This document shows positions 10,872 through 60,082 of a stretch of 64,000 nucleotides of DNA, in pieces; the stretch's first letter is position 1, and the number at the start of each line of letters is the position of its first letter. The stretch covers positions 55,838-119,837 of the IMG/VR virus record IMGVR_UViG_3300025848_000001; one strand, 5' to 3'. The notes beneath the pieces are model-generated. The model had not been told where the DNA came from. It worked only from the letters and a program-made list of their open reading frames with translations, and made no database searches. A program made the position numbers and the translations under genes. The DNA comes from a virus. Its lineage: Duplodnaviria > Caudoviricetes.

Positions 10872-11032
10872 ATAGACTACTAACTAGCCTTGTGCAATTA
10901 GCCCTTGTTATACCCGCCCTATACATGGGGCGTATAGCGTGGGAAATGCTAAAAGAAGATGTGAGAGAACTCACAAAATAAATACGGCGTGTCGGCTTGA
11001 CAAAAAGCTGATCGCCCGCAACGATTGTGGAG

Positions 11033-11439: not shown

Positions 11440-11486
11440 ATGTCGGTGGCTTCCGCTATAATCTAAATACTACGAAAGGAAAACTA

Positions 11487-11639
11487 ATGAAAATAAGTGT
11501 AAATGAAAATTATTACTCAACAGACGAAAGTTTTTTTTGCTGTGATGAACAGGTAATAAAAATGTATTGCGAACCTCATGGCGAGTTTATGGGTTGTTAT
11601 TTTTGCGAATTTGATTATACAGAAAAATGCGAATGCTAG
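11487..11639 (+). CDS. Cys-rich microprotein
   Basis: ACGAAAGGAA RBS; MKISVNEN...CC...C..H...C..C...CEC. Confidence 0.6.
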   Translation: MKISVNENYYSTDESFFCCDEQVIKMYCEPHGEFMGCYFCEFDYTEKCEC

Positions 11640-11781
11640 GAGATAAAAAAATGGATTTGATCGATTTTAGAAATTATGTAAAAGCTGAGCGTGAAGCAAC
11701 ACGCCAGCAAAACCTCACCGCAATTTTGTCGGTGGCTTCTGCTACAATTACAGAAAACAACGAACGAAAGGAAAACTAAAA

Positions 11782-11937
11782 ATGAAAGTAATTCACACTC
11801 TATCTTTTGACTGCGATACCTGCTATGGAAAAGGTTGGTTATTTTATGGCGGAGGCGAGGACTATAATGTTGAGCCTTGCGACTGTAACCCTAACTCTGA
11901 TTTTGACGGCTCTTTATTTGTAAAGGAAAATGACTAA
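11782..11937 (+). CDS. Zn-ribbon microprotein
   Basis: AACGAAAGGAA RBS; CDTCYGKG...VEPCDC. Confidence 0.6.
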   Translation: MKVIHTLSFDCDTCYGKGWLFYGGGEDYNVEPCDCNPNSDFDGSLFVKEND

Positions 11938-12082
11938 TGAAAAAAAATGTTCTAATCTCTTTTGTTACTGAGGCTGATACTGATTTGGAAGCGGTATTTG
12001 ACCTAAACAAAATTTTTCTAGCCTTGCCTGAAAGCGAACTAAAAAAGTTTGATGTATTTGATGTTTTGGAGGTTGTTGAATA

Positions 12083-12271
12083 ATGATGACACGAAAAGAC
12101 TATGTTGCTACCGCAGAAATTCTGCGGTATGTATCAGACAAAACTCACCCTGCTGTATTTTCAAAAATGGTTGTAGATTTTGCTGAGATGTTCGCAAGAG
12201 ATAATGAAAGATTTGATGCGAATAAATTTTATTCCGCAGCGAATTACAAAATACCAAGTTTTAGGAGTTGA
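12083..12271 (+). CDS. hypothetical phage protein (MTRKDY...F..DN.RFD..KF family)
   Basis: GGAGG RBS; pattern seen in small phage proteins. Confidence 0.65.
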   Translation: MMTRKDYVATAEILRYVSDKTHPAVFSKMVVDFAEMFARDNERFDANKFYSAANYKIPSFRS

Positions 12272-12603
12272 AATGAAATTACAAAATAAAGAAAGAATAA
12301 AAAAAGTTTTGGAAATTCGCCGCAGTAATGCGGCGACACCAATTCCATCTAAAAAAACTTATTCACGAAAACGAAAACATAAAAAAACCGCTGTTGGTAA
12401 AACTATGAATTGGGATTAGTTGAATTTTCAACTAATCGCCCGCAAGAACTGTGGGGGCGCCAAGCTTGTTACGTCAAGTCCAAAACACCCTTAAAATTTG
12501 TGATGTTTATCACAAAAATAATTTTTAGACACGCCGATAATAAAACTAATTTGTCAGTAGATTACGCTATAATTCTCGCATAACAACAAACGAAAGGTAA
12601 AAA

Positions 12604-12855
12604 ATGAAAGACATGACTAGATGGGCATTATTCCCATTCACCGTTGACGGAGTAGAATTCGTATCTAAGTTAGATATCGAAGGCTCAATGTATAATCAAG
12701 TAAAAAATCTGCCTGCTGGATTATTTACTGCTATGAACGAGGGTGCTATCCGTGAAATAATCGGTTCAGTATCTACTATGTCTAAATCTGAAATTCAGGC
12801 AGAATTAGACCGTGTAAATGAGGGTTATTCGCAGGCTTATTTAGCCCTAGCCTAA
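12604..12855 (+). CDS. hypothetical early-island protein
   Basis: CAAACGAAAGG leader, promoter 12552. Confidence 0.7.
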   Translation: MKDMTRWALFPFTVDGVEFVSKLDIEGSMYNQVKNLPAGLFTAMNEGAIREIIGSVSTMSKSEIQAELDRVNEGYSQAYLALA

Positions 12856-12911
12856 TAATGTCGGTGGGCTAGTGTATAATCTAGCCCACTAACAACAAAC
12901 GAAAGGGAATT

Positions 12912-13184
12912 ATGTTATCAACTGCTTCTGCTCTACTTGAGGCTACTCAAGAGGGAATAATTGGCGATGAACAAATGGAACTTGCTTCTTTTATTGTAAA
13001 TGCTCGCCATGAACTAGACCAAGAACAATTTGCTAAAGCGATGTTTATGTATGCTACTGCTATTGCTTCATGCGTAACTGATAAAGTTACTAAAGTATTA
13101 CTAACTGAAAGTCAATTTAGAGAACTAATTGAAACTATTGACGAAATGGAAACAATGTCTAATGAGGTGCTAAATGGGAAGTAA
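12912..13184 (+). CDS. hypothetical early-island protein
   Basis: CAAACGAAAGG leader, promoter 12859. Confidence 0.7.
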   Translation: MLSTASALLEATQEGIIGDEQMELASFIVNARHELDQEQFAKAMFMYATAIASCVTDKVTKVLLTESQFRELIETIDEMETMSNEVLNGK

Positions 13185-13446
13185 TCTTGCTTATGATTTA
13201 GCAAATGGCGAAATGGATTTATCTAGTGCTATTGCTATACACTTATCAGCTAATCATTATCCACCCGTCCCCAAATTTATGGTGGAGCCGTGTATCGAGG
13301 CTATTTTTGCCTATGATGAAGGCGAAATAGATCGTGAAATAGCCATGCCCGAAGGAGTATCCTATAAAGGTAGAGATACTGCTCCTGCGTGGGCTATTGT
13401 AGAACAGCACCACTTAGATGCGTGGATAACTAACTACGAGGAATAA
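13174..13446 (+). CDS. hypothetical protein (HL..NHYPP...HHL motif)
   Basis: GAGG RBS, overlaps upstream stop. Confidence 0.65.
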   Translation: MGSNLAYDLANGEMDLSSAIAIHLSANHYPPVPKFMVEPCIEAIFAYDEGEIDREIAMPEGVSYKGRDTAPAWAIVEQHHLDAWITNYEE

Positions 13447-13728
13447 TTGTCGGTGGGGTGGTGTATAATCACCCTGTCAAACTAACGAAAGGGAAAAAAT
13501 GCTAGAAATCGGACAAACCTACACAACTACCCAAAGCGGTATTGTTGGAATTATCAAGGCGATTGACAATCACCCAAGTGGAGTAAATCGTATTCTCCTT
13601 GATGTAAATGGCGCAGAACGCTGGACAAGCGCACCTGCTAAATAACAACTAAATAGGCAGGGCTCACCAAAATGTCGGTGGGCTCTGCTACAATTTTGCT
13701 CAACAAATAACGAAAGGAAAATAAACAA

Positions 13729-14154
13729 ATGGCAAGAAACGGAAAATCTATTAGTGTCAAGATTGCTACAACTAAAGTAATCAAAGCACTAGAAACTAAG
13801 TTAGCAGAATTAGAGGCTAACTACAAAAAGCAAGATGAAAACGAAGCAAAATACCAAAAGTCTATGGAAAAATGGCGTAAAGAAGTTGGTAAGTTTGCTA
13901 TTGCTAACATCTCAAAGGCAGAAAACTTCCGCACAAATTATCGCTCATGGAACAAAACTCTCAATGTAGATTTTGACCTGACCTGTAATGAAGCAGATTT
14001 CCCTGCTGAACCTGTGCGTGATTTTGAGGTAATTCATCAGCACACATACAACGAGATGAAAGAGGAAATCTCTAACGCTATCCGTATTCTCAAGATGACA
14101 GATGAGGAAGTTGTAAGCACCTCAACTTACAACGCTATCGCTCGTTATCTCTAA
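13729..14154 (+). CDS. hypothetical early-island protein (coiled coil)
   Basis: AACGAAAGGAA leader, promoter 13673. Confidence 0.75.
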   Translation: MARNGKSISVKIATTKVIKALETKLAELEANYKKQDENEAKYQKSMEKWRKEVGKFAIANISKAENFRTNYRSWNKTLNVDFDLTCNEADFPAEPVRDFEVIHQHTYNEMKEEISNAIRILKMTDEEVVSTSTYNAIARYL

Positions 14155-14227
14155 TAGCGTGGGGGCTAGACAAACTCTAGCCCCCTATGCTACAATTCGT
14201 ATCCCTACTAACAAAGGAAATAAATAA

Positions 14228-14461
14228 ATGCGATTGGCTGAAATATTCGAAGTAGAATACTCAGTAAGTCCTGGCGGTGTAGATTGCTGGGAAATGGAAG
14301 TAAGAACAGGTGTGGGACAACATCACAACTATTCTGAATACAAATCTGCTGGTGAGGCGTTGAATCACCTGCTATCGCTCTATCCTGATGAGCAATTAAA
14401 CATAACAATAACAAATCTAATAACTTACAATAAACTTATTGAAGAAGGTGTTTATGCGTAA
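14228..14461 (+). CDS. hypothetical protein
   Basis: AAAGGAA RBS. Confidence 0.6.
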   Translation: MRLAEIFEVEYSVSPGGVDCWEMEVRTGVGQHHNYSEYKSAGEALNHLLSLYPDEQLNITITNLITYNKLIEEGVYA

Positions 14462-14711
14462 TAGATTTAGAATTGAGATCTATGATGAAAATAAGTTAAA
14501 TGATTTAACTCTTTATTCTGAGCAAGGCGTAGATAAAGAATACTTAACTGAATTAGTATTTTCTAATTTATCTCAGTTTTCTGGTAGAGTAAAAGCATAT
14601 GTCTATGATGAATTAAAAAAGAAAAAGACAGTTGCTTTGTTAATACCTGAAGAAACTGTAATTAATCTTAAACCAAAACAATTGACTAGAATTGAGTTAG
14701 GTTTAATTTAA
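14454..14711 (+). CDS. hypothetical protein
   Basis: GAAGG RBS before MRNRFRIE. Confidence 0.55.
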   Translation: MRNRFRIEIYDENKLNDLTLYSEQGVDKEYLTELVFSNLSQFSGRVKAYVYDELKKKKTVALLIPEETVINLKPKQLTRIELGLI

Positions 14712-14716
14712 AATAA

Positions 14717-14771
14717 TTGGGGCGGGTTTGAACTGTGTAATCATCTAGATTCCCGCCCCATTCCAATTTTT
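14717..14771 (+). terminator. terminator hairpin
   Basis: TGGGGCGGG...CCCGCCCCA then T tract. Confidence 0.55.
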
Positions 14772-14945
14772 GCCCGCAAGAACTGTGGGGGCGCCGAGCT
14801 CTTTACGTCAAGTCAAAAACACCCCTTAAATTGTGAGATTAATCACAATGTCCGATTTGCCCTATCTTACATCTAATCTGTTGCCAAATGTCGGTGGCGT
14901 AGTGTATAATTCAGATTCAATCTAACAATGAAAGGAAATAAATTC

Positions 14946-15956
14946 ATGGCTCATAACCTTGAAACTAATGGCGACGAAGTCGCTTTCGCCCTACGTGGCA
15001 CACCTGCTTGGCATAATCTTGCCAATCGTATCTTCAATCAAGATGAAGATGTCTCAACTCAATTGATGTTAGACGAAGCAAAACTTTCTAATTGGAATGT
15101 TCGCTTGTCTCCAATTACTGATTTTATTCCAGAAAATTGGAATGACACATCAGATTCACAATTGGTAATTCGTACCAATCCATTCAATAATGGTACCGAT
15201 GTTCTTTCTACTGTCGGCTCACGATATAAAGTTGTTCAGAATGAAGAATTATTTTCATTCGCTGACAATATCCTAGATGGCGATTCTCGCTGTGCTTGGG
15301 AATCTGCTGGCTCTCTCAAGGGTGGTAAAGTTGTATTCGGCTCTCTTACTGTCCCTCGTGAAATGGTATTAGACCCACAAGGTGCTAACGATAAAACAAA
15401 ATTGTATCTTATCGTTTGGACATCTCACGATGGTTCTGTCGCTGTTCAAGCAGCAATCACACCTGTTCGTGTTGTATGCCAAAACACTTTGAATCTCGCA
15501 ATGCGTTCTGCTAAGCAATCTTTCAAGATTCGCCATACTCAGACTGCTGAAGGTAAGATTCAAATTGCTCGTGAAACTCTTGGTCTAACTCTTGGATACT
15601 TTGACGCATTCGAGAAAGAGGCTCAGGAATTGTTCAAATCAGAAATTACTGATAAGCAATTCTATGATTTGATTCGCACAATTTATCCTAAGCCTGCGGA
15701 AGATTCTTCCAAATTGGCTCAGACTAAGTGGGAAAATAAAGTTATTCTTCTTGATGACCTTTATTTCAATTCACCTACTAATGCTAACATCAAGGGTACA
15801 AAATGGGGTGCTTTCAATGCGCTTACTGAACGCCTTGATTATTTCCGTCCGACACGGAAAAATAATTCAGAATCTAAGTGGGCTTCCGCTTCAGGTTTTG
15901 ACCCGATTATTACTGCTGAGAAGAATAAAATTCTTCAAGTTGTAAAATCATTCTAA
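14946..15956 (+). CDS. DUF932/DUF945 phage/plasmid-like protein (TIGR03299-like)
   Basis: PAWH.L, Y.VVQNEE.F.F, ESAGSLKGG, SHDGS...TPVRVVCQNTL, IRHT, GTKWGAFNALTE. Confidence 0.85.
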   Translation: MAHNLETNGDEVAFALRGTPAWHNLANRIFNQDEDVSTQLMLDEAKLSNWNVRLSPITDFIPENWNDTSDSQLVIRTNPFNNGTDVLSTVGSRYKVVQNEELFSFADNILDGDSRCAWESAGSLKGGKVVFGSLTVPREMVLDPQGANDKTKLYLIVWTSHDGSVAVQAAITPVRVVCQNTLNLAMRSAKQSFKIRHTQTAEGKIQIARETLGLTLGYFDAFEKEAQELFKSEITDKQFYDLIRTIYPKPAEDSSKLAQTKWENKVILLDDLYFNSPTNANIKGTKWGAFNALTERLDYFRPTRKNNSESKWASASGFDPIITAEKNKILQVVKSF

Positions 15957-15961
15957 AGAAT

Positions 15962-15981
15962 GGGGCCCCGCAAGGGGCCCC
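15962..15981 (+). terminator. terminator hairpin
   Basis: GGGGCCCC-GCAA-GGGGCCCC (GNRA loop). Confidence 0.65.
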
Positions 15982-16137
15982 TCCTCTTCGATCTAATTTG
16001 ACAAAGCTGCAAAAATGCCCGCAGAAGGTAAAGGCGAAAAATGTGTTTTACGTCACATTTTAAAAATCCCCTAAAAAGCCTGGACTTTTGTCAGTCAGGT
16101 CCGCTATAATACTCCATATAACAACGAAAGGAATAAA

Positions 16138-16602
16138 ATGGAAAAAGTAACACAAGATGCATATGCTCCGCACCAATTGATAACTCTTAAGCAGATTACT
16201 GGCGAGGATGTTGAATTCGAGTTATATAAAGTAACTGAGTTAGAAACAGTTTTGCATGATGCAAAGAGTAGAATTAATCAATTAACTGGACGCTTAGAGG
16301 CACAGGAAAAGCAAATTGGTTTAATTTTAAATAAGATGACGTCAGATGAATGGTATTCATCCAGCGTTGAAAAGTTTGAGGTATTGTCAGACCTATGTGA
16401 TATTCTTGGGTTTGAACCAAAGCAAAGCATTCGTATTACTGCTACCGTTGAGGTTGAAGTTGACTACGATTGTCCACTTGATGAAATTGAAGACTTTGAT
16501 GCAGGAGATTTCTTACAAGATGTTTTAACAATTGATACATATCATGGTGATGCTATGGTTTATTCATACAACGTAGAATCAGCAGATTGGGCTACGCACT
16601 AA
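16138..16602 (+). CDS. hypothetical early-island protein
   Basis: AACGAAAGGAA leader, promoter 16089. Confidence 0.7.
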   Translation: MEKVTQDAYAPHQLITLKQITGEDVEFELYKVTELETVLHDAKSRINQLTGRLEAQEKQIGLILNKMTSDEWYSSSVEKFEVLSDLCDILGFEPKQSIRITATVEVEVDYDCPLDEIEDFDAGDFLQDVLTIDTYHGDAMVYSYNVESADWATH

Positions 16603-16969
16603 TGTATTATCAACTACAGGCACCCACTAGCGCAGCCTGCAAGGCTGCCTATTGGGAGGCAGAGTTTTCAGGACTTGACCCATATTGGCTTGAGTCTAAT
16701 GTATTTGAATTAGGAACAGGAAGCATTGAAAAAGTTTCTGCCTTGATTTCCAAATATAATCTTGATATACTAGTTGAATCAGATTATCAACCAACTGGTT
16801 ATACAAGGAGGTAGTATGGACTACAAAGACGGTTTTGAAGACGGAGTTAAGTTTACTCGTGAAGTAATCATTGCTAATATTCGTAAATGGGCTGAGGATT
16901 CTATTCTTGGCGAAGAAGGAGCAATTATGGACAGCGTTGCAGATAAAATCGAATTTGGGACATTAGACA

Positions 16970-17191
16970 ATGACCTCTGAGGATCTTACAATAGAATGGA
17001 TTAAATGCGATTCTTGTTCCGCCCGTGCAGCTTGGCTTGCACGTGGTACTAATGGTGAGCTTACATTTTGTGGACACCATTTAAATAAGAATAAGTCGGG
17101 CCTTGACAGTTGGGCCTATGAAATTATAGAATTGGGTAAAGAAGAACTACCTAAGAAACGAACTAGACGAAAGGCGGTAAAAAATGGGTGA
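16970..17191 (+). CDS. Zn-finger protein (CDSC...FCGHH)
   Basis: CxxC...CxHH pattern. Confidence 0.6.
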   Translation: MTSEDLTIEWIKCDSCSARAAWLARGTNGELTFCGHHLNKNKSGLDSWAYEIIELGKEELPKKRTRRKAVKNG

Positions 17192-17588
17192 CAGAGCAAA
17201 TTTTGTTTTTGTACAACCAAGCGGAGAGACCATTGTCCTATATGGACATTGGGCAGGACATAACATGTTGGAGCATTTAGGCGAGGCTGTAGCCAAGGCA
17301 CAGTCACGTTGGTCGGACCCTTCATATGCAACACGTATAGCAATTAGTCAAATGATTGGCGACGGTTGGGGCATGGAAACTGGATGGGGACTGCAAGTAA
17401 ATGAGATATCAGACAATGAACACAAGATTCCTGTGATTAATTGGCTGGAACAGACTATGTCTCTTCATGAGGAAGATTCACATTTCAACGAATCTAATAA
17501 GGTCCGTGGAATGAAGAATGAAGCGATATTCACAATTGATTTGCGAACGTTTGTAGAGAAATACACGGACGCAAAACTTTTGGTATAA
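17184..17588 (+). CDS. hypothetical protein (MGDR...LYGHW family)
   Basis: ORF in operon with AAGG RBS. Confidence 0.65.
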   Translation: MGDRANFVFVQPSGETIVLYGHWAGHNMLEHLGEAVAKAQSRWSDPSYATRIAISQMIGDGWGMETGWGLQVNEISDNEHKIPVINWLEQTMSLHEEDSHFNESNKVRGMKNEAIFTIDLRTFVEKYTDAKLLV

Positions 17589-17595
17589 TATTAAT

Positions 17596-17719
17596 AATGA
17601 GGTGCCGCTACTAGCGATTCCGCAAGTGGTTAACTAAAGCAGCATTTACTTAAATTCCTTTCGTTTGGCTAGCAGCCTCATATTAATAGGGCCCCTGGGA
17701 TCCAGGGGCCTTTCCTTTT
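17596..17719 (+). ncRNA. candidate trans-acting antisense sRNA against island leaders
   Basis: TGGTATAAT extended -10 at 17581; closing stem ATGAGG-TGC/GCA-G-CCTCAT; TTCCTTTCGTTTG at 17655-17667; terminator GGCCCCTGG-GAT-CCAGGGGCC-TTT. Confidence 0.5.
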
Positions 17720-17868
17720 GCCCGCAGTAACTGAGGGTAGCTAAAGCTTGTTACGTTGTCAAGTCAAAATCCCCTAAATTTTGATCAGCTGCGATGTGTC
17801 CCACATCATATAGACAAATGTCAGTGGGGGGATGTATAATAATGCTCCATAACGAGAAAGGAATATAT

Positions 17869-18615
17869 ATGCCAAACTGGGTATATAACGGTCTAACTAT
17901 TGAAGGTAATCCTTCAGAAATTAATGACCTTGTAGCACAATTAAATAAACCATTCAAAATGGTCCATGATTCATGGAACATGGAAAATGGACAAATGCAG
18001 AAGAAATTAACAACATATCCAAATCCTGTATTTGCATTCTATAACATCTATAACTATATTGAAGACGGTGTTACTGATTATGAATATCTTGCACAACCCG
18101 ACCATTCTTTACCAATTGAAGAATCAATGAAATTTGCAACAAATGATTGGTATAACTGGAATGTTCGTAATTGGGGAACAAAATGGGATGTTGCTGTATC
18201 TTCAGATGATAAATATCCTGATACATATACTGAGGGACCTACTTCTAATGGTGAGAATCTAGTTGTATATTATAACTTTAATACTGCTTGGTCTCCTCCG
18301 TTTCCTGCCATTGCTAAATTATCAGGCCAATACCCAACTCTTCTATTTACACTTAGTTATGAAGAAGAAACAGGTTGGGGTGGCGAATGTGAATTCCTTC
18401 GCAATGAAATGATATCTAATTCAGAGTATTCTAATAAATGTAGAGACTGTGATTCAGAAGATACATTAGATTATTGTGAGAATGATTGTGGAGAAATTTG
18501 CTCTGCTTGTAATTATTTAGGAGAGGCAGACCTTGAATGTGTCAAAGAATGTCAGACCCATAAGATATACTTGGATGAAAATCACGTACCTGAATACAGA
18601 ATGGAGCAAATATAG
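17869..18615 (+). CDS. YubB/DUF1281-like ferredoxin-fold protein with C-terminal Cys cluster
   Basis: MPNWVYN.L, WYNWNVRNWGTKWD, FNTAWSPP, YEE motifs. Confidence 0.8.
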   Translation: MPNWVYNGLTIEGNPSEINDLVAQLNKPFKMVHDSWNMENGQMQKKLTTYPNPVFAFYNIYNYIEDGVTDYEYLAQPDHSLPIEESMKFATNDWYNWNVRNWGTKWDVAVSSDDKYPDTYTEGPTSNGENLVVYYNFNTAWSPPFPAIAKLSGQYPTLLFTLSYEEETGWGGECEFLRNEMISNSEYSNKCRDCDSEDTLDYCENDCGEICSACNYLGEADLECVKECQTHKIYLDENHVPEYRMEQI

Positions 18616-19772
18616 TGGAAGCGTTTACAGATACTCTAGGAGAACATATCCTAGGAGCAATTCAAGTAGATATTGAAGAACATCTATTTGAACAATGGAA
18701 TCAATCTAATTTAGATGAAGGCACGGAATATGCTGAATTTAGATTTATTCAATTTGCACCTGATAGTGTAAAACAATCATACAATGAATTCTATGGATAT
18801 AAAGAAGGAGATGAATACTATGTTGGGATATAGTACAAAGGATGTATTTGATATGCAGAATGCTATTGAATTGGCTCTTCCTTATATTCCCGCCAATTCT
18901 TCAAATGATTTAGTTCGTGAAGGATTGTTATCTGCGTTTGATTTGTTAGAAGGACTAATTGTGGAAGGAAGAATGTGAATCAGTTAATTGAATATATAAA
19001 GCTTCATGTAATTAGTTTGGAACAAGACCAGGAAGATGTTTCTAATGAAATGGAAAAACTGGATATGAACTCTAAAGATTATATTGAATTAGACTTTGAA
19101 TATAATCATCTAGGAGGACAGATTCTTTCTGCCCGCCATATTTTGTCAGTGGCGGAGGATATACTAGGATGATGTACTCAATGGAACTGGAACCACGCCT
19201 GCAGAAGCAGGTTGACATGAACATCTCTGGAACAGATATTTTGCACGGGGAACTCAAAAACCTTATCTATGAGGCTGAAGCAGAACTGGCTCGTGCACAG
19301 GAAATAGAAGAAGAGAACGACTATGGCGACGCCATGGAATCTATGGAAAGAAAGTATTGGGAGGGCCAAGTGGACGGTCTCTCACATGTGTATGCATTAA
19401 CATATCAACTTGCATTCGCAATTAACGAAAGGACAAAAGCACGTGGCTGATATAGATCTAAATAAACTATATAACGATATGGTTGATATTAATGATAGGA
19501 TTACCAAACTTCCTGTATTCCCGTCCCTTGGCTGGGTATGGACCTTTGACATCCTTAGAGATATCTTTGACAACGCCGATACTGGCTATGACGAAGCAAT
19601 CACTGAAGGCGTCACATTACAACAAATCTTTAATAAGTTCTATGAAGACATCGACAAGTTGGACATGAATATGGACCAAGGTGGGGAGATGTTACAGGAG
19701 ACAATCAGAGACTGGATGAGAGACAACGACTTCCTCGTTGCCCTGGATGATGACGGGTGGCTAGATGACTAG
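18615..19772 (+). CDS. run of five short acidic hypothetical ORFs (18615-18833, ~18820-18978, 18975-19172, 19169-19450, ~19443-19772)
   Basis: overlapping start/stop codons, same strand. Confidence 0.55.
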
Positions 19773-59386: not shown

Positions 59387-60082
59387 TTAATTTTCTTTAA
59401 CATTTAAAATTATTGGATCTGCCTCATGAGATCCAATTTTGTTACCGAATTCATCCATTCCCTTTTTATATAATCTTAATCTTTTGCCAGTTTCTCTTAC
59501 TGATGCATGCAATGCATCAACATATTCTTTTCTGTCATTAGTTTTTGGGTATGGAAAATCTTCATTTAAAATTGTTATTGTTGAATTATTAAATTCTCCT
59601 ATTGATATCGGAAGGATACATCCAATATTTGTTCCTGCTGGTATTAAAATTTCTTTATTTGCAAACTCTGGTTTTATTCTCCATACAATAGATAGCTCTC
59701 CTGTAAAAAATGATGTAGCTAAAATTGTACTCAAGACCATTGCTTCTTCTAATGGTTCATTTGGTACTGGCATTGTTAATAAACTAATATTTTGATCTGA
59801 TTTAAATACTAAATTAGTAACAAAGCTTACCGTACCTTCGCTTCTTCCTGCATCTGACCATATATGATCTTTTCCTAAAATACCAACTGCTGCAGATTCT
59901 CTATCACCATTCCATTTAAAAGATATATCTTCATCATAATAAACACCATATCCAAAAACATTTGCTTGGGCTATTGGGAAACAACTGTAAGTACTAGAAT
60001 GCATCCATTCTCTTTGAAATTTTAATTGTCTTAATTTAGCACCCTTACCGTTTGTTCCTCTATAGGCAACTACATTATACAT
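59387..60082 (-). CDS. DUF6065-like protein
   Basis: REWM...Y.CFP...AN..GY, P.PN, IPAGT. Confidence 0.6.
   Translation of the reverse strand: MYNVVAYRGTNGKGAKLRQLKFQREWMHSSTYSCFPIAQANVFGYGVYYDEDISFKWNGDRESAAVGILGKDHIWSDAGRSEGTVSFVTNLVFKSDQNISLLTMPVPNEPLEEAMVLSTILATSFFTGELSIVWRIKPEFANKEILIPAGTNIGCILPISIGEFNNSTITILNEDFPYPKTNDRKEYVDALHASVRETGKRLRLYKKGMDEFGNKIGSHEADPIILNVKEN

Follow-up and report, generated by a model that had tools for sequence, protein, structure and literature searches.

The stretch analysed here, hereafter the window, comprises 64,000 nucleotides of the IMG/VR virus record IMGVR_UViG_3300025848_000001 (Caudoviricetes) and corresponds to bases 55838-119837 of a complete phage genome of 119.8 kb with direct terminal repeats. 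Its GC content is ~33 %, and a block between 10 and 20 kb is richer (37-40 %). The genes of this block, called the early island below, are on the + strand, while most of the genome is oriented the other way, and DUF932, DUF7455 and Api92-like proteins are among their products. Directly after one of them, gene 17184-17588, the window carries at 17581-17719 (+) a predicted small RNA gene in which an extended -10 box is followed by a three-helix RNA and then by an intrinsic terminator. Gene 17184-17588 has its nearest named relatives in phages of actinobacteria, namely DSL-LC01, a lake phage, and large phages of Streptomyces and Gordonia, and the RNA gene appears to belong to a clade of uncultured, low-GC, freshwater actinobacterial phages with genomes of ~110-120 kb. 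Its parts, and the operon at whose end it lies, are the following (window coordinates).

17581-17589 (+): extended -10 box TGGTATAAT, read from the sequence; putative promoter
17597-17603 (+): 5' strand of helix P1, ATGAGGT, pairing with 17675-17681; double-sided changes at four of the seven pairs
17604-17630 (+): hairpin P2, GCCGCU (17604-17609) with AGUGGU (17625-17630); 99 % of cells paired
17631-17638 (+): junction J2/3, UAACUAAA; consensus UAA-N-UAA-N, conserved and unpaired in the consensus structure
17639-17673 (+): hairpin P3, GCAGC (17639-17643) with GCUAGC (17668-17673, one bulged A), closing a loop of 24 nucleotides (nt) at 17644-17667
17658-17665 (+): invariant loop motif CUUUCGUU, exact complement of the leader sequence AACGAAAG; proposed seed
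17675-17681 (+): 3' strand of helix P1, GCCUCAU, pairing with ATGAGGT at 17597-17603
17688-17712 (+): hairpin of the intrinsic terminator, with a T-run to 17719
16081-17719 (+): early operon with the RNA at its 3' end (promoter 16081-16110, first gene start 16138, last gene end 17588)

A sequence-only reading of the window had announced at this place one RNA of about 120 nt, initiated at an extended -10 box and ending with a closing stem and a GC-rich terminator. The box is present at 17581-17589, where it overlaps the TAA stop codon (17586-17588) of the upstream gene, and a terminator scan called the hairpin at 17688-17712 on the + strand, which consists of an 11-pair G-C-rich stem with a 3-nt loop and is followed by the tail UUUCCUUUU. 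The closing stem also exists, and only its limits had to be redrawn: covariation assigned it to ATGAGGT (17597-17603) and GCCTCAT (17675-17681), while the 'GC' of the originally proposed strand ATGAGGTGC is part of helix P2; in its counterpart GCAGCCTCAT, the 'GCA' represents the last two bases of P3 and a one-base junction. Judging from its spacing to the -10 box, the transcript would start at ~17596-17598. What emerged is a putative discrete, conserved and structured + strand RNA gene of ~124 nt with its own terminator, the length across the family being ~95-125 nt.

The promoter was expected to differ from those of the other island genes, and this is what its sequence suggests, since it seems to be of the sigma-70 type and lacks both a usable -35 and a TGTCRGTG box; a promoter scan, which demands a -35, made no call at 17581-17589. 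In the window P1 begins 7 nt past the -10 box, and in most relatives a small 5' hairpin lies in between. As many as 45 of 57 distinct relatives displayed a promoter element just before the RNA (41 with TGnTAnAAT at the same place, three with TTGACA-18-TATAAT and one with a -10 only). A terminator followed the RNA in 47 of the 57 according to a strict rule, and about six more displayed long-loop hairpins, which brought the total to ~53. By these sequence signals the RNA gene thus has its own promoter and its own terminator, as an independent transcription unit would.

Conservation of the locus in relatives was assessed on two sets of loci. The first set, obtained by searching with the upstream protein, contained 32 related phage loci, all of which (32/32) displayed the element directly after the gene. 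Alignment of its 26 distinct copies led to the P1/P2/P3 fold with compensatory changes and to a covariance model, R1. The second set was composed of 80 loci picked by the neighbouring protein alone, to which the window was added, and it comprised 57 distinct RNA sequences. R1 detected exactly one copy per locus (81/81), always directly after the gene and on one and the same strand, with scores of 48-98 bits, and the identity of the neighbouring protein went down to 64 % across these loci. The conservation on which the sequence-only reading had made itself depend was hence complete. On loci selected by a sequence pattern, R1 produced a clean split, the scores being at least 60 bits or there being no match at all. 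The RNA-specific 25-base pattern matched at least 120 rows of IMG/VR, and the family has well over 100 members.

Among the 57 distinct sequences, 97.4 % of the pair cells were standard pairs, and 178 double-sided changes were counted against 51 ± 6.5 after shuffling (0/500 shuffles reached the observed count). Pairing dropped to 22-49 % in slid controls, where partners were moved by one to three columns. Covariation was also encountered in an earlier set of 49 distinct sequences, the two sets together giving 96-97 % of cells paired and 164-178 double-sided changes versus 51-53 after shuffling. Helix P3 displayed such changes at three of its five pairs, with 99 % of its cells paired. P2 consists of an inner GCG/CGC stem, a variable loop and many G-U pairs; its second pair is C-G in the window and G-C in the majority of the family, a compensatory change. 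The direction of the RNA is indicated by the pairs themselves, as ~121 of 830 cells (~15 %) of the 49-sequence set were G-U or U-G and would become A-C mismatches on the opposite strand; the RNA strand is thus the + strand. The predicted architecture is a three-way junction of P1, P2 and P3, in which the loop of P3 would display CUUUCGUU.

Two further resemblances were noticed within the fold. In most members of one group of P3 loops (group A, see below) the junction reads UAAGUAA and could form an alternative helix or a pseudoknot with its complement UUACUUA, located in the 5' part of the loop. A pseudoknot between junction and loop was nevertheless discarded: it fails in the window (UAACUAAA) and in groups B and C, and the failures are not compensated. 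Most family members also share a 10-mer, AGGTGCGGCT, with the segment of Arthrobacter 16S rRNA that just precedes the anti-Shine-Dalgarno tail (window positions 17597-17612 were compared). A role as a mimic of the 16S 3' end was not retained, the match being probably due to chance, as the positions involved change together with their partner in P2 and the window has other bases there.

No known RNA family was recognised at the locus. Rfam 15 returned none there, only eight tRNAs reaching gathering scores in the whole window, and at E <= 10 the segment 17500-17900 gave only three sub-threshold chance matches of 15-18 bits. ARAGORN reported neither tRNA nor transfer-messenger RNA (tmRNA) at the locus, and a blastn search of INPHARED with the region gave no matches. 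A tblastn search of INPHARED with the upstream protein retrieved DSL-LC01 and otherwise only distant phages of Streptomyces, Gordonia and Nocardia, and those tested were devoid of the RNA. In prokaryote genomes, no R1 member was found among the first 100 of at least 120 pattern-matching loci. Absence from Rfam and presence in well over 100 environmental phage contigs make this a new structured RNA, whatever its mechanism.

The P3 loop is 18-25 nt long, varies in length and sequence and falls into four groups (A-D). Within it, the motif CUUUCGUU was present in all 57 distinct RNAs (57/57), a set that had not been selected by the motif, while its flanks and the loop length varied. In the window RNA the motif displayed a mean unpaired probability of 0.61 per base, and opening all eight bases cost 1.1 kcal/mol; the majority of group A and group C members required 0.5-1.7 kcal/mol. 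The loop thus carries a seed that is conserved, accessible and complementary to its proposed targets. The sequence-only reading had pointed to the reverse complement of a leader in this segment, and the string is found as the 25-nt CATTTACTTAAATTCCTTTCGTTTG at 17643-17667. Read on the minus strand it is, as had been described, a leader followed by ATG-CTG-CTT-TAG (M-L-L-stop). The ATG is not conserved in relatives, and a minus-strand micro-ORF (open reading frame) was rejected for this reason.

The leaders concerned belong to the early island. Each promoter-proximal gene of the island is preceded by a promoter of the type TGTC(A/G)GTGG-N8-TAnAAT and then by a short A/C-rich leader ending with AACGAAAGG(A). 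At no more than one mismatch, AACGAAAGGAA occurs 12 times in the window versus 1.5 expected copies (0/100 shuffles reached this number), so the leader copies listed earlier are real. Of the 12 copies, 11 fall in the 9.9-19.4 kb interval of the + strand; the remaining one, on the - strand, is the RNA locus itself. The proposed targets are distributed as follows.

11471-19434 (+): proposed targets, leaders (A)ACGAAAGG(A), located 5-12 nt before the starts of promoter-proximal island genes
11471, 11763, 12589, 12898, 13484, 13709, 16123 and 19424 (+): starts of the target motif copies
11195, 14927, 17154 and 17851 (+): weaker leader copies

Exact AACGAAAG was encountered eight times in the 119.8-kb genome, in seven island leaders and at the RNA locus. 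A census of 8-mers in the 19 nt before ATG-initiated ORFs, covering 74 distinct loci and 654 kb, gave ACGAAAGG (360 counts) and AACGAAAG (358 counts) as the two commonest. Over the same 74 loci, AACGAAAG displayed 376 sense and 74 antisense copies, and all 74 antisense copies were within the RNA, one per locus. The claimed complementarity was hence borne out in a sharper form: the sole invariant stretch of the loop is the exact complement of the dominant early leader and its only antisense copy in each phage examined.

The leader motif keeps a fixed distance to the start codon and not to the promoter, which indicates that it acts at the ribosome-binding site. Sites of the GAAAGG type precede 11 of 31 island genes versus two of 156 others, while GGAG or GAGG sites precede five of 31 island genes versus 61 of 156 others; the RNA could therefore distinguish the two classes. 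The leader also extends past the region that pairs with 16S rRNA, as the sequence-only reading had noted for its (CA)AAC extension. The AAC cannot pair, since the Arthrobacter 16S that was checked ends with ...CACCTCCTTT (as returned by the Rfam model). The extension is real, but its value as a sign that the leaders were tuned to the RNA was weakened by phage DSL-LC01, which is devoid of the RNA and contains ACGAAAGGA 22 times.

Pairing energies singled out the same leaders. Sliding duplex scanning of both strands of the complete genome placed island leaders at ranks 1, 3, 7 and 9 after the trivial self-match. When duplex energies were calculated for 187 crude gene starts, the best nine all belonged to island genes (-13.6 to -19.0 kcal/mol), in agreement with the expectation that island leaders should rank at the top of the phage, and island starts differed from the remaining ones (Mann-Whitney p = 1.4e-5). 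Third-best among the predicted partners (-16.0 kcal/mol) is the leader of gene 16138, with which the operon that ends in the RNA begins. Co-folding of the RNA with six leaders gave a gain of 6.8-17.3 kcal/mol net of unfolding.

These observations suggest a base-pairing RNA that masks the ribosome-binding sites of early genes, a reading we consider moderately probable. Host RNA polymerase would transcribe the RNA from the extended -10 or consensus sigma-70 promoter, and the RNA would also be delivered as the 3' end of the early operon starting at ~16.1 kb, with its own intrinsic terminator as end point in either case. Its P3 loop would pair through CUUUCGUU with AACGAAAG(G) in the short 5' leaders of early-island messenger RNAs (mRNAs), the paired stretch covering the 5' half of the Shine-Dalgarno (SD) sequence and three bases upstream of it. 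Such pairing would hide the ribosome-binding site and bring down the whole early class together as the RNA accumulates, while genes elsewhere, mostly with GGAG-type sites, would be spared; early transcription would thus bring its own brake. We infer that the RNA is transcribed and pairs in the cell, and that the effect is repressive, repression being likelier than activation because the leaders are A/C-rich and unstructured.

Several observations weigh against this proposal. No recognisable promoter was found in 12 of the 57 distinct relatives and no terminator in four. In groups B-D the first bases of the motif are engaged in a predicted apical stem that leaves a UUCGUU or UCGUU loop, and the price of opening is 2-4 kcal/mol for groups B and D, against ~1 kcal/mol for group C. 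Since neither the core of the loop nor that of the leader varies, the pairing between RNA and leader is not tested by any compensatory change. Positions flanking the core display no clear covariation with the leaders across loop groups A-D either, and the comparison of locus and leaders in relatives that the sequence-only reading had proposed as a check gave nothing convincing. Furthermore, the leader type is independent of the RNA. In DSL-LC01 (OQ999401.1, 129 kb and GC-richer), 22 + strand copies of ACGAAAGG, mostly GACGAAAGGAC, precede early genes between 24 and 43 kb of the record, and this genome displayed no R1 match and no inverted ACGAAAGG or CGAAAGG 7-mer. The RNA would at most have evolved to exploit a pre-existing leader. 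Lastly, an early RNA made from a constitutive-type promoter does not by itself explain timing.

Part of this pattern would suit a loop that binds a protein or the ribosome, or pairs with a host RNA, complementarity to the leaders being then a by-product, for instance of descent from an inverted leader copy. The UUCGUU/UCGUU apical loops of groups B-D, presented on group-specific stems, have the look of a recognition hairpin, the junction nucleotides are strongly conserved without pairing, and both the absence of flank covariation with the leaders and the occurrence of the leader without the RNA in DSL-LC01 would follow naturally. Such a role is nonetheless judged unlikely, because it leaves unexplained why the invariant 8-mer exactly complements one of the two commonest leader 8-mers, a coincidence whose chance is in the order of 1 in 10,000 (a rough estimate and not a computed value). 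In addition, AACGAAAG is absent from the 16S and 23S rRNAs of one Arthrobacter genome, taken as a single representative, which speaks against pairing with host rRNA. No candidate protein partner emerged, the neighbouring protein being without a recognisable fold. Somewhat less likely still is an action mainly in cis, by which the RNA would be the 3' untranslated region (UTR) of the 16.1-17.7 kb operon and its anti-leader loop would fold back onto the site of the first gene (16138), giving feedback at the level of the operon. From the promoter at 16081-16110 onwards, the + strand is free of terminators up to the hairpin at 17688, so that the RNA is also the 3' end of this early operon. The rank of the 16138 leader among the predicted partners, the 12 relatives devoid of a separate promoter and the precedent of a 3'-UTR pairing with an SD sequence (PMC3868564) all fit such feedback. 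It accounts poorly for the promoter element found just before the RNA in the other 45, some of which are full TTGACA-18-TATAAT promoters, and for the 5' hairpin that precedes P1, downstream of the -10 box, in many members, a feature that a separate transcript would be expected to have. At least six other leaders, moreover, pair equally well or better. The cis action, which resembles that of icaR of Staphylococcus aureus, can coexist with masking of the other early leaders.

The remaining identities are far less probable. That the RNA could be a degraded or miniature relative of tmRNA or tRNA was raised by Streptomyces phage Elmer (PQ362660.1), where an annotated phage tmRNA comes directly after gp197, the homologue of the upstream gene with 32 % identity. 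This kinship is very improbable: ARAGORN was negative, as was Rfam even at E <= 10, reading of the sequence revealed no CCA end, T-loop or conserved tag frame, R1 matched nowhere in the Elmer genome record, whose tmRNA is not similar by eye, and an RNA of ~95 nt compares with ~280 nt for tmRNA. Hardest of all to credit is that a gene start was left here as an inverted relic, or that the palindrome arose by chance and has no function. The minus strand of the window does read like a leader with an ATG, but the ATG varies among relatives, the helices covary with G-U pairs specific to the + strand, and the element was kept at 81 of 81 loci; helix covariation and this conservation exclude the relic that the sequence-only reading had named as its own refutation. 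A riboswitch or attenuator was likewise discarded by eye, as the element comes after a gene, a separate promoter (17811-17840) serves the next one, and the terminator sequences differ freely among relatives while the core is fixed. As an observation apart, the slot after the gene family of 17184-17588 holds an RNA gene in two distant groups of phages, the two RNAs being without sequence similarity.

The switch of phages from early to late expression is mostly explained by transcription factors and by a few proteins acting on mRNA. Among the latter, the repressor RegA and the endonuclease RegB (which cuts at GGAG) of phage T4 pick early mRNAs via their ribosome-binding sites; these are proteins and not RNA. 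Small RNAs with loop seeds are known from Gram-positive and actinobacterial hosts (6C/B11, RsaE), where they act independently of Hfq and stable hairpins offer C/U-rich loops to the purine-rich ribosome-binding regions of several mRNAs. They differ from the present RNA in being host-encoded and in having C-rich loops.

In function, the nearest known counterpart is the c4 antisense RNA of phages P1 and P7 (Rfam C4, RF01695). It carries loop sequences that base-pair in the vicinity of a ribosome-binding site in an mRNA encoded by the phage, thereby blocking translation (PMC12197685). Like c4, the RNA described here is phage-encoded, structured and of comparable size (~77-125 nt), and its predicted targets are mRNAs of the phage itself. 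The two display no homology in sequence or structure, there being no Rfam match, and their hosts are enterobacterial for c4 and actinobacterial here. In contrast to c4, which serves temperate immunity and acts on one operon (icd/ant), the predicted targets are at least seven separate early transcripts with one shared leader. A tyrosine integrase, looked for as a test of a role in immunity, was not found in the phage; serine integrases were not searched.

On the leader side, the island resembles the start-associated sequences (SAS) of Cluster K mycobacteriophages. Each of these genomes was described as having a single inverted copy, located away from gene starts, and whether the SAS are bound by an RNA or by a protein was left open (PMC3203893). 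In both cases a short asymmetric motif includes the SD sequence, extends past complementarity to 16S rRNA and is located a few bases before the starts of many non-structural genes, in one orientation only. The island leaders display these leader-side features of an SAS-type system, as a functional analogy and not as sequence homology to the SAS of Cluster K. The motif is GGGATAGGAGCCC there and AACGAAAGGAA here, and the phage groups differ. The SAS paper names no partner RNA (PMC3203893), whereas the inverted copy described here is part of the loop of an RNA with covarying helices. A brief look at Mycobacterium phage Anaya, to be taken as a lead and not as a result, placed its single inverted SAS in the loop of a GCGCG/CGCGC stem within a 385-nt unannotated gap (59682-60066 of the record). 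This gap is conserved with 70-90 % identity in 182 Cluster K records. In phage Hammy, 15 GGGATAGGAG sites are kept, and the corresponding loop, CCCTCCTTCCCC, matches the SAS only partially.

The icaR 3'-UTR of S. aureus carries a pyrimidine-rich motif that pairs with the SD region, blocks initiation and creates a substrate for RNase III (PMC3868564). In a similar way, the RNA of the window lies at the 3' end of an operon and matches the leader of the first gene there. icaR, however, acts within one mRNA (intramolecularly or between its copies), whereas most members of the present family have their own promoter, many potential targets and a conserved three-way junction.

The family is a new and well-supported structured RNA, with a specific and statistically striking complementarity to the early leaders of its own phages; a regulatory role is plausible but unproven. 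An RNA that recognises leaders would provide compact translational control of a whole set of early genes. It is also a concrete candidate for the kind of partner of actinobacteriophage start-associated leader motifs that was left open earlier (PMC3203893). Only tentatively, we propose a more general device in which a private early leader and one structured RNA reading it form a timer that silences a class of genes at once, the inverted SAS of Cluster K, unexplained since 2011, being the same device. If this is true, the idea becomes testable in culturable phages of Mycobacterium smegmatis. The pair of leader and RNA might also be reused as an orthogonal translational switch in actinobacteria.

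The 134-amino-acid protein encoded by gene 17184-17588 (phrog_31860) is highly conserved and always accompanies the RNA in the clade. Its structure was modelled with confidence (pLDDT 91.7), and no solved fold matched the model (Foldseek E > 0.5; VIA-align Z <= 3.6). It was considered as a protein partner of the RNA and dropped, since neither Foldseek nor VIA-align gave a recognisable fold.

Downstream of the RNA gene, positions 17720-17840 contain a conserved multipart element, GCCCGCA ... TGAGGGTA ... TTACG..GTCAA, which was also encountered at 11014, 12438, 14772 and 16017, in each case after the terminator of a module. The element is followed by a palindrome (GATGTG-TCC-CACATC in the window, GTGTGA-ATCACAC in relatives) and then by the promoter TGTCAGTGG-N8-TATAAT. 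On the minus strand, the part TTACG..GTCAA reads TTGACA-18-TACCCT, a possible divergent promoter. The island promoter at 17811-17840, located before the gene of the Api92-like protein, can equally be read as TAGACA-18-TATAAT, with 11 of 12 matches to the sigma-70 consensus and the TGTCAGTGG box within the spacer. Island promoters of the 'PafBC-type' may therefore additionally carry a -35-like element.

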